Origin: a virus
Taxonomy: Duplodnaviria; Caudoviricetes
IMG/VR virus record: IMGVR_UViG_2731957888_000002
Location: 6,959 to 70,958 of that record
Direction: 5' to 3' (one strand)
Length of the DNA stretch: 64,000 nucleotides
Made by a program: the position numbers and the translations under genes. Shown here piece after piece: positions 7,195 to 9,874 of the stretch; position 1 is the first letter of the stretch; each line of letters opens with the position of its first letter. Below the pieces are notes generated by a model. The model saw nothing but the letters and a program-made list of their open reading frames with translations. It had not been told where the DNA came from and ran no database searches.

Positions 7195-8424
7195 ATGGCA
7201 AGCGTCAGAAAGCGAGAGTGGACCTACAAGGGCGAGAAGAAGTCCGCCTATGTGGTCTGCTATAAAGACCATGACGGAAAGCGTCGGATGAAGACCTTCG
7301 ATAGAAGGAAGGATGCCGATAAATACCGCGATGAAGTTGCGTCGATCCTCTTGCGTGGCGAGCGCGTTTCAGCTCCGCAGGCAACGACCGTTCGTGCTGT
7401 GATCGAGATGTATCTCCGCCACTGTGAGGACAAGGCCCGAGATGGCCGCATCGGAAAAGCGCATCTGTATAATCAGCAGCGAATGCTTTCCCGCAGCATC
7501 ATCCCGTACATCGGAGATATGAATATCCGCGATATCAAATCGGGAACTATCGAAGATCTATATCAAAATTTGTGCCGCAAGGACGGCGTCAAGCCTCAGA
7601 CGGCAAGGCATAGGATCGGCATTTTCAAGATGGTGCAAGACTATGCTTACAAGCGGGGGATCATAAATACGCGGCCGGTCAGTGATGGAATTGAGGAACT
7701 ACGTGGCATTAAAAAACAAGAAATCTCCACGTTTACAAATGAAGAAGTTGCAATACTTCTCGATGGAGCAAAGGAAAGAAAATTCAAAGGGCATAAAAGA
7801 GCGGCAGAATACGGAAACATATTTGTTCATCTCGCCGCATTCTGCGGACTACGAATTGGCGAGATCATGGGGCTGACACTGGACTGTATCGACTTCGGGA
7901 ACAGAATGATCCTGGTTCGACGAAGCCTCTCTCGGCACGACGGGTTAAAAGCGCCGAAGACACCGGCGAGCATTCGCGATGTACCAATGCCCGTGCATAT
8001 CGCGCTGATGCTGCGTTCTTGGCTCGACAAATTCTATCTGAAAAACAAATTGAACCTTGTTTTCACAACGGCAGAAGCGAAGCCGATAGATATCTCTGGC
8101 TTCCATCAAGCGCTTTGGCGCCCACTTCTAGCTAGGTGCGGTCTCTATAGAGAGAGGGACCCTTTTCACTTCCATGCTCTCAGACACTTCGCTGCGAGCC
8201 GGTGGATTGATCGCGGGCTTCCTCCGCAGGACGTCGCTGCCCTACTCGGGCATTCCCGCGTGGAACTGACGATGCGGGTCTATGTGCATCGTGTGAGCCG
8301 AAGCACCCACCGGCTTCGGGACGCGATCGACGGGATGGCTGCCGACCTTCTGGCGCTGCCGCCGACGATCGATGGGACACTGATCCGGGGCGACGCTACC
8401 CCCAACCTTGTCGCCAGCTTCTGA
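7195..8424 (+). CDS. int: Tyrosine recombinase/integrase
   Basis: Arm-binding N-terminus (MASVRKREW...KTF), GLRIGE, PKT, HALRH, LLGH, TMRVY catalytic motifs; lower GC. Confidence 0.95.
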   Translation: MASVRKREWTYKGEKKSAYVVCYKDHDGKRRMKTFDRRKDADKYRDEVASILLRGERVSAPQATTVRAVIEMYLRHCEDKARDGRIGKAHLYNQQRMLSRSIIPYIGDMNIRDIKSGTIEDLYQNLCRKDGVKPQTARHRIGIFKMVQDYAYKRGIINTRPVSDGIEELRGIKKQEISTFTNEEVAILLDGAKERKFKGHKRAAEYGNIFVHLAAFCGLRIGEIMGLTLDCIDFGNRMILVRRSLSRHDGLKAPKTPASIRDVPMPVHIALMLRSWLDKFYLKNKLNLVFTTAEAKPIDISGFHQALWRPLLARCGLYRERDPFHFHALRHFAASRWIDRGLPPQDVAALLGHSRVELTMRVYVHRVSRSTHRLRDAIDGMAADLLALPPTIDGTLIRGDATPNLVASF

Positions 8425-8431
8425 GGGTTGG

Positions 8432-8494
8432 GCGACAACGCTGCAACAACGACCTCTAAGTCATTGATTTACTAGGACTGCACACAACAGCGGG
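8432..8494. other. Putative right attachment junction of the embedded element
   Basis: Direct repeat GCGACAACG/GCAACAACG, AT-rich TAAGTCATTGATTT, then an abrupt switch to portal codons CAC AAC AGC GGG TGG at 8483. Confidence 0.7.
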
Positions 8495-9874
8495 TGGATC
8501 ACGGGCGCGATCGACCAGGCGGTCGCGAACACCGTCGGAGCGGGCCTGCGCCCGCGCCTGATGCCCGACGCCGCAGCCCTCGGCTGGACCGAGGACGAGG
8601 CGACGGACTGGGCCGCGCGCGTCGAGGGCCGGTTCCTCGGCCTGTGGGCGAACAACCCCTACGAGTGCGACATCGAGGGGCGGCGCACCTTCGGGCAGAT
8701 GCAGGCGGCGGGATACCGCTCCTGGTTCGGTCCGGGCGAAATCGTCTCGGAATGCGCCTGGAAGCGCCGGCCCGGCGCGACCTACGGGACGAAGGTCCGG
8801 ATGATCCCGGCCCATCGCCTGTCGCAGCGCACGAGCAATCCGCGGCTGGTCCAGGGCGTCCAGATGGACGCCGACTGGATGCCGATCTCCTACTGGTTCT
8901 GGCGCCGCGGCGCGCCGGTCGGGGCCGAGCAGGAGATCGAAATCGAGGCGCGCGACCGCTACGGCCGGCCGCGGATCGTCCACGTCTTCGACGGCGTGCC
9001 CGGGCAGTACCGCGGGATCTCGCCGCTGGTCTCGGCGCTCGCGACCGCCCGGCGGTTCGAGCAACTCACCGAGGCAAAGCTCACGGCGAACCTGATCCAG
9101 GCCGTGTTCGCGGCCACGATCAAGTCGGACGAGCCGACCGAGGAAGTCCTGAAGGGTCTGATGACCCCGCAGGAATACGCCCGGATGCAGAGCGAGGGCA
9201 TGTCGGTCTTCGACGCCTGGGCGGCGATGAACGACGGGTGGTACAAGAACACCCAGATCGACCTCGGCACGAACGGGCGTTTCGCGCACCTCTTCCCGGG
9301 CCAGGAACTCGAATTCCACGCCAACGCGCAGAACGCGGCCGACTTCAAGGACCTGGCGCTCTTCCTCCTGCGCGAGATCCTGCGCTGTCTCGGCCTGACC
9401 TACGAGAGCGGAACAGGCGATTATACCGGCGCCACCTACTCGTCGGTCCGCATGGCAGTGAACGAGATCTTCAAGATCACCGAGTACCGCCGGAAGAACA
9501 TCGTCGCTCCGTTCTCGACCCCGCACTTCATGTGCTGGCTCGAGGAGGACATCGCGGCCGGCAACACGCCGTTTCCGGGAGGGGTCGACGCCTTCCTGGA
9601 AAAGCGGACGGCGGCCTGCCGCATCGAGTGGGTCGGGACGCCCAAGCCCGAAGCCGACAACCTCAAGACGGCCAAGGCGCACGAGACCTATCGCAACATG
9701 GGCGTGCTCACCGACGAGGTGATCTGCGCCGACCTCGGGCTCGATGTCCACGACGTCTACAAGCAGCGCGCCCGGGAGATGCGCATGCGCCAGGCGATGG
9801 GCCTGCCCGAGAACGGGCCGGCCCCGACGCCCGACCCGGTCGCCGACAAGCTCGCGGTGCAGGAGGATCAGTAG
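8483..9874 (+). pseudogene. Lambda-family portal protein, interrupted (N-terminus missing)
   Basis: Frame reads HNSGWITGAIDQAVANTVGAGLRPRLMPD from 8483, with an in-frame TGA at 8465 and no start codon before 8561; portal motifs GQYRGISPL and GDYTGATYSSVR. Confidence 0.85.

Follow-up and report, generated by a model that had tools for sequence, protein, structure and literature searches.

The DNA analysed here (the window) is a stretch of 64,000 nucleotides (nt) comprising positions 6959–70958 of the 70,958-bp virus record IMGVR_UViG_2731957888_000002; coordinates without a prefix refer to the window, and those of the whole record are marked 'contig'. Near its left end a tyrosine integrase gene is followed, after a short spacer, by a phage portal gene that lacks its 5′ part. 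The 15.4 kb to the left of the 8482/8483 boundary is referred to as X, a satellite-like element, and the DNA to the right as phage Y, a resident myovirus-like prophage that owns the portal gene. The comparisons described below make it probable that a helper-embedded satellite from a new lineage ends at this boundary, which would form its right junction.

The integrase–portal boundary

The features that meet at the boundary are as follows.

7183–8424, + strand: tyrosine integrase (Pfam PF00589, E 4e-24, and a PHROG match), GC content 0.53
8425–8482, + strand: spacer of 58 nt, GC content 0.50, between the integrase stop codon and the start of portal homology
8483–9874, + strand: 3′ part of the lambda-family portal gene of phage Y, 463 codons (Pfam Phage_portal_2 and nucleotide homology)

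The reading frame from 8483 matches positions 35–354 of the 354-position Phage_portal_2 profile (PF05136, E 1e-74), and so falls short of a full-length match. An in-frame TGA lies upstream at 8465–8467, and the first in-frame ATG, GTG or TTG thereafter is the ATG at 8561. Both the coordinates and the profile agree with a first-pass annotation of this DNA, in which the portal frame was seen to resume at 8483 just after the integrase, with a stop at 8465 and no start until 8561. That annotation had concluded that the portal N-terminus is displaced and, indeed, about 79 5′ codons are absent by comparison with full-length homologues: 11 of the 12 closest are 526–542 amino acids (aa) long, with the motif HNSGW at residues 72–80. 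The missing stretch contains the conserved block GYMRGE..RDP.DEVR..IHNSGW, which can be aligned to the solved portals 8vhx and lambda gpB 8k38. None of the 14 aligned homologues, the close ones included, starts near Met 8561.

The position of the break is sharply defined. Nucleotide homology to an intact relative (L002, portal 88% identical at the amino acid level) begins exactly at 8483, and the Logan contigs of three sequencing runs (X1, X2 and X5) cease matching at the same base. All 463 remaining portal codons are open, and the portals closest to this one come from Methylobacterium.

The integrase open reading frame (ORF) is apparently intact, as judged from its sequence. It retains R224, H331-x-x-R334, H357 and Y367, which are invariant among its 10 closest homologues, the nearest being 47% identical, and no other integrase was found in the record. 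The spacer that follows carries CTAAGTCATTGAT at 8456–8468; the same 13-mer occurs at a similar distance after the stop codon of another integrase of the family (L107, whose record contains the split capsid gene described below), again in an AT-rich spacer, and a 29-mer of the window spacer is present in no other IMG/VR record. We propose that the spacer is the element-side arm of an attR site.

Relatives of the integrase and an associated RNA

The right flank of this integrase family could be judged in six loci, the window included, and in every case the gene next to the integrase on that side aligns with no more than the C-terminal portion of a phage protein family; three further loci (L103, L104 and L106) end too soon after the integrase and were left out of the count. 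Head or packaging genes make up five of the six targets; the remaining one, in L102, is an unnamed family.

Window: portal, Pfam profile positions 35–354
L102: family of about 500 aa with no Pfam match and only a PHROG of unknown function, residues 44–503
L105: large terminase (terL), phrog_9 positions 440–676 of 812
L107: capsid, PF05065 positions 174–261
L108: capsid, residues 95–370 of a 370-aa paralogue
L109: terL fragment, weak match (E 2e-4)

Three whole records (G790, G791 and G793) were searched for both halves of the interrupted gene, and a complete split was found in two. In G790, an 87.8-kb provirus, a capsid gene is split by a 15.2-kb insert into same-strand pieces that match PF05065 positions 11–178 and 174–261 and align to residues 1–300 and 299–381 of a full-length capsid, with the 8-nt repeat TGGGCCCG at both junctions. 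The insert encodes a replication initiator, an HNH protein, a capsid gene of its own, minor tail genes and a repressor-like gene, followed by the RNA described below, an antirepressor (Ant) and the integrase. In G793 (32.7 kb), a phage protein of about 500 aa is divided into residues 6–58 and 44–503, which lie 14.1 kb apart, and a 14-nt block recurs at the two junctions with 13 positions identical. Here the insert carries HTH_17, a primase-helicase (AAA_25), a resolvase, small and large terminase genes (terS and terL), low-GC cargo, the RNA, Ant and the integrase. Both inserts start at their left end with a terminator-like hairpin, as read from the printed sequence, and in both the terminase or capsid genes are preceded by 6–7 kb of genes for regulation and replication. 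It is thus strongly supported, at the level of sequence comparison, that this integrase family sits inside phage late genes.

The G790 provirus (L117) holds further capsid copies, namely a short fragment at record positions 30710–30790 (PF05065 positions 253–279) and a second near-full capsid gene at 37186–37938. These extra copies hint that the provirus may contain two or more phage-derived units, nested or in tandem.

A second feature that recurs with this integrase family lies within X.

3990–4300, + strand: structured RNA-like element of about 310 nt (conserved 23-mer, covariation)

The region 3940–4260 aligns with DNA upstream of a distant integrase homologue in L007, with conserved blocks and variable stems, and the 23-mer has exact matches in eight IMG/VR loci. 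When a nine-sequence alignment was folded with RNAalifold, 78 base pairs were obtained, 30 of which show compensatory double changes. The + strand is assigned from invariant G-U pairs, and the fold contains three or four hairpins capped by CTTGCCGG. No Rfam family was matched at E 0.1, the best weak match being to sRNA-Xcc1 (20 bits, E 0.62). On the strength of this covariation the element is a candidate new structured RNA.

A homologue of the window integrase (27–43% identity) lies 0.7–3.6 kb downstream of the RNA on the same strand in seven of the eight loci, and the eighth contains a PF00589 integrase that is more distantly related. The genes between RNA and integrase include antirepressors in four loci and an HTH_17 gene in one; in the window, a ParB-like gene occupies this position. 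The RNA could be a leader that controls an antirepressor–integrase operon. The combined RNA and integrase signature also offers a simple handle for finding further elements of this kind. In one locus (L104, IMG/VR), two adjacent RVT_1 reverse-transcriptase genes are found upstream of the RNA copy.

Gene content of X and of phage Y

The remaining annotated features of X are listed below.

contig 170–745: gpA-type terminase small subunit, terS (PHROG)
contig 719–2821: gpA-type terminase large subunit, terL, 12.6 kb upstream of the portal
1–1574, + strand: 3′ part of a tape-measure-like gene (PHROG tape-measure); the whole ORF, contig 5461–8532, begins about 1.5 kb before the window
1584–2153, + strand: gpZ-like, tail-completion gene (Minor_tail_Z, E 7e-6; phrog_27, E 3e-15)
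3062–3844, − strand: DUF3800 gene (Pfam, E 5e-18), cargo, a low-GC island (0.52 against 0.67–0.70 in its flanks)
5245–6654, + strand: ParB-like nuclease-domain protein of 469 aa, cargo (ParB_N, E 1.5e-4, under the curated cut-off; phrog_12047, E 4e-33)
6605–7141, + strand: 178-aa ORF directly upstream of the integrase, with a coding-like GC content at third codon positions (0.87)

The contig starts about 145 nt before terS. From there, the order is terS, terL, four ORFs without a family match, tail paralogues, DUF3800, small ORFs, the ParB-like gene, the 178-aa ORF and the integrase. X therefore has terS and terL of its own but no portal, capsid, sheath or baseplate genes. Its tail genes are copies related to those of phage Y: the tail chaperone is a paralogue of the Y copy (70% aa identity), the tape measure is a diverged paralogue of that at 17510–20821 (BLASTP identities of 53% and 61% at the two ends; 67–70% in the nucleotide self-match), and the gpZ-like gene is a paralogue of 20812–21399 (51% aa identity). 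In both copies in the window the gpZ-like gene follows the tape measure. At least 12 related loci (L006, L024, L044, L067 and others) differ in that the homologue is instead placed ahead of terS/terL, at a distance of about 0.4 to about 9.5 kb.

The 178-aa ORF has no family in Pfam, PHROGs, NCBIfam or PADLOC, and NCBIfam and PADLOC gave no useful matches for the unannotated genes of X. Queries with the ParB-like protein and with a 334-aa protein of X found no viral relatives. An Atlas search with the 334-aa protein matched unnamed clusters only; its identification as Psu was rejected, the Atlas lead of 0.82 being within noise.

The terminase genes are informative about ownership. A lambda-family portal lies within 1.5 kb after terL in 43 of 51 related loci, and 42 of these 43 portal alignments reach residue 50 or earlier, which makes the arrangement here, with unrelated, non-portal ORFs directly after the terL stop codon, abnormal. 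Moreover, X terL is closest (72–76% identity) to terL genes on 15–20-kb contigs, and is only 58–62% identical to those of three phages whose portals are 80–88% identical to the window portal. Since X terL resembles the small-contig genes and not those of the portal lineage, terS and terL are assigned to X and not to Y. A hybrid terL, such as a deletion between two terminase genes would leave, was also considered, and no segment of terL was found to be closer to the lineage of the portal.

The closest relative of X terS/terL among the sequences fetched is a 16.9-kb metagenome contig from JGI (L017), in which positions 8600–14300 form an island of ParA, a primase-helicase, HTH_17, terS, terL, an RHH gene, an S49 protease and a homologue of the 334-aa protein of X. 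This contig has no portal between terL and the protease, and the place expected for one holds only 650 bp.

To the right of the junction, phage Y continues to 64000 with complete head, sheath/tube, baseplate, tail, lysis and replication modules. The features nearest to the portal are these.

9875–13496, + strand: remainder of the head module of Y (Pfam), all genes open
within 9875–13496, + strand: 83-aa ORF, the first after the portal
10148–11656, + strand: S49 protease (Pfam)
11696–12367, + strand: decoration protein (Pfam)
12471–13496, + strand: gpE-type capsid (Pfam)

Two Y genes of low third-position GC content have the appearance of recent acquisitions: a beta-helix protein in the tail-fibre region (31760–33352) and a 416-aa HTH_3 protein (58465–59715). 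The replication block at 41641–45890 (− strand) encodes an RtcB-like RNA ligase (638 aa), a PAPS-reductase-domain protein (551 aa) and an adjoining UvrD_C_2 fragment.

As for the wider setting, there is no terminal repeat or sign of circularity in the 70,958-bp record, and the contig carries no host flanks. No tRNA genes, which were sought as integration targets, were found in the window or in loci L001, L007 and L008. Proteins of the window are also present in NCBI on three contigs, the longest of 70,970 bp. No near match was found among plasmids or phages, and scans of genome contigs and of about 800 genomes from one order and one family gave distant portal relatives only. The best sequencing run holds 0.16 of the sequence words; contigs from the runs cover the portal side only and are thus silent on the integrase.

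Origin of the junction and comparison with known satellites

In the proposed model, 8482/8483 would be the attR site of X, inserted in and co-oriented with the portal gene of phage Y. X would belong to a family of PICI-like elements (after the phage-inducible chromosomal islands) of about 14–15 kb, with attP just downstream of an integrase at the 3′ end and a predicted order of HTH_17, primase-helicase, terS/terL or capsid, borrowed tail genes, low-GC cargo, RNA, antirepressor or DNA-binding gene, and integrase. The short sequences with which these integrases recombine would lie within phage genes. As long as X stays in place, the portal ORF would be cut, leaving its 3′ part without a start codon; integrase-driven excision would rejoin the portal, and X would then be packaged into Y particles. 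The left join, beyond the contig, would repeat the first few bases of CACAACAGCGG. By its size and content, X most likely corresponds to the distal two thirds of an element of this kind, with the contig starting inside it; because G790 and G793 hold 6–7 kb upstream of the corresponding genes, the left end would not be expected on a contig that begins at terS. The 5′ part of the portal and attL would then lie off the left end of the contig, and the model further predicts excision with rejoining of the portal, a role in timing and dependence on the helper. We consider it reasonably likely that X is an embedded and potentially excisable satellite, with attL and the portal 5′ part off the record.

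Several observations weigh against this reading. No 5′ half of the portal was found in the record when five full-length homologues were used as tblastn queries (E up to 10). Four of the five alignments end at 8483, and that of P0004 continues leftwards past the in-frame stop codon as far as the 3′ end of the integrase gene; this was treated as an extension artefact and not as portal sequence. The ORF directly after terL (contig 2821–3195) was rejected as a portal 5′ part, as it is unrelated to portals and has no family match. Furthermore, no direct repeat of at least 13 nt from 8382–8542 occurs anywhere in the record, and the longest junction word that recurs elsewhere is 12 nt, a length at which matches are chance-like; the 'att-like stretch' of the first-pass annotation could not be verified as such. 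The first 1 kb of the contig contains no terminator-like hairpin, unlike the left ends of G790 and G793, and the visible part of X has no replication, regulator or antirepressor genes in Pfam, PHROGs or NCBIfam. In the third whole record, G791, no 5′ counterpart of the interrupted capsid gene turned up. The GC content of the integrase and spacer together (0.53, against 0.67–0.71 for the remainder of X) suggests that the integrase cassette could be a later arrival or the remnant of another element. Finally, a search turned up no reads or contigs of the source sample by which the junction might be confirmed. The first-pass annotation had envisaged a portal 5′ end and a terminase upstream, with a duplicated core, and of these the terminase alone is present. 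Its idea of a phage gene split by an integrase element is strongly supported for the integrase family, through the truncated flanks and the two complete splits with repeats; for this record, in which neither the 5′ half nor the repeat was found, a reversible split is not demonstrated.

The absence of the portal 5′ half and of the repeat would also fit a dead recombination scar, which we regard as a serious but rather unlikely alternative. In that case an element of this family once integrated, or copies in two different phages recombined, and the portal 5′ part, attL and the Y terminase were then deleted, leaving a fused, defective prophage whose portal could never be restored. The patchwork of lineages and compositions in the left 15.4 kb, the lack of visible replication or regulator genes in X and the missing portal between terL and protease in L017 also fit such a history. 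Against it, the 463 portal codons and all downstream head, tail and lysis genes are open, the integrase is intact, and the junction has the form typical of the family, as in the two intact splits, while the 6–7 kb upstream region of the complete relatives explains a contig without a left end. An ordinary defective mosaic prophage was also considered, and was dropped as the best reading in view of the RNA and integrase family and the complete splits.

Two further explanations have little to recommend them. That the join is an assembly chimera of two phage genomes is very unlikely: in its favour are the absence of source-sample reads and a contig without host flanks or terminal repeat, but at the join there is no stretch common to both sides by which an assembler could be misled (the longest word shared elsewhere is 12 nt), the same proteins are recorded on the three NCBI contigs, and the combination of integrase, AT-rich spacer and truncated phage gene recurs in five other independent records. 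It is harder still to credit that the integrase is phage Y's own and that a short portal of 437 aa, started at Met 8561, is functional. This would suit an integrase that is the sole one in the record and a contig that begins just upstream of terS, which resembles a cos-to-cos genome map. However, no aligned homologue starts near this methionine, the block that would be lost is conserved out to solved portal structures, nearly all related portals (the 42 of 43 above) align from residue 50 or earlier, and no Shine-Dalgarno-like sequence is apparent by eye before 8561.

With X taken as an embedded satellite, the closest known systems are the helper-embedded PICIs (HE-PICIs), satellites with a tyrosine integrase that reside inside prophage late genes and that are reported from Enterobacteriaceae only (Tommasini, Mageeney and Williams 2023, PMC10111431). 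Within the scope of a literature search, helper-embedded satellites so far comprise one integrase clade from that family, and no such elements are reported outside it. We see an even chance that X represents a second, independently evolved lineage of helper-embedded satellites in high-GC (Methylobacterium-like) phages, with 3′-end integrases that are unrelated to the one HE-PICI integrase compared and have been repeatedly retargeted to different phage genes (portal, terminase, capsid and an unnamed family), and with an RNA-headed operon. The RNA may couple excision to the late transcription of the helper. If true, cutting the head or packaging genes of a helper would be a convergent satellite strategy, and X would provide a second system in which to ask whether excision gates head assembly.

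In the broad sense X would count as helper-embedded: it reads in the same direction as a prophage late gene and, at its right junction, interrupts that gene at a single base. The likeness extends to satellite size, a tyrosine integrase, insertion in and co-orientation with a prophage gene (here mostly head or packaging genes), short blocks of attL/attR identity (here in G790 and G793) and late genes of their own, capsid or terminase. Among the portal sites described for HE-PICIs are B:Phage_portal_2:241 and :38 (PMC10111431), the latter close to the break in the window portal at profile position 34/35.

The differences are equally clear. The HE-PICI integrase and AlpA are described at the upstream end, beside the 5′ fragment of the gene (PMC10111431), whereas the integrase here lies at the 3′ end, with 58 nt between it and the portal 3′ fragment, and attP is downstream of int. 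Against the integrase of Eco567.11capE, the one HE-PICI member compared, the window integrase gives a BLASTP E of 0.19 with no alignment longer than 39 aa. A doubled TGTATTGC about 81 bp upstream and 132 bp downstream of the centre is given for the HE-PICI attP (PMC10111431); near the window junction there is none, and a single two-mismatch match at 3346–3365 is equalled in 6 of 100 shuffles. Both gene halves and an att block are described as flanking HE-PICIs and are not in this record, which possibly ends inside the element. The hosts also differ, the closest portals here being from Methylobacterium and the described HE-PICIs from Enterobacteriaceae, and a conserved structured RNA accompanies the window integrase family. 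As judged by sequence, X would thus work like an HE-PICI yet appears to lie outside the HE-PICI integrase clade, of which that one member was compared by BLASTP.

Resemblance to PICI and P4-type satellites, as described in the same source (PMC10111431), is seen in G793, with its HTH_17 (AlpA-like) gene, AAA_25 primase-helicase, terS/terL, cargo and integrase, and in G790, with its replication initiator, HNH protein, own capsid, repressor, antirepressor and integrase, both at sizes of 14–15 kb. The targets here, in contrast, are phage genes and not tRNA or chromosomal sites, att is on the other side of int (PMC10111431), and the window shows only the distal part of the element, without a replication module. 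Lastly, there is a parallel with active lysogeny, in which prophages that split comK or hlb interrupt a gene that would be restored by precise excision, as is predicted here; the difference is that the gene interrupted by X belongs to another phage and not to the host.

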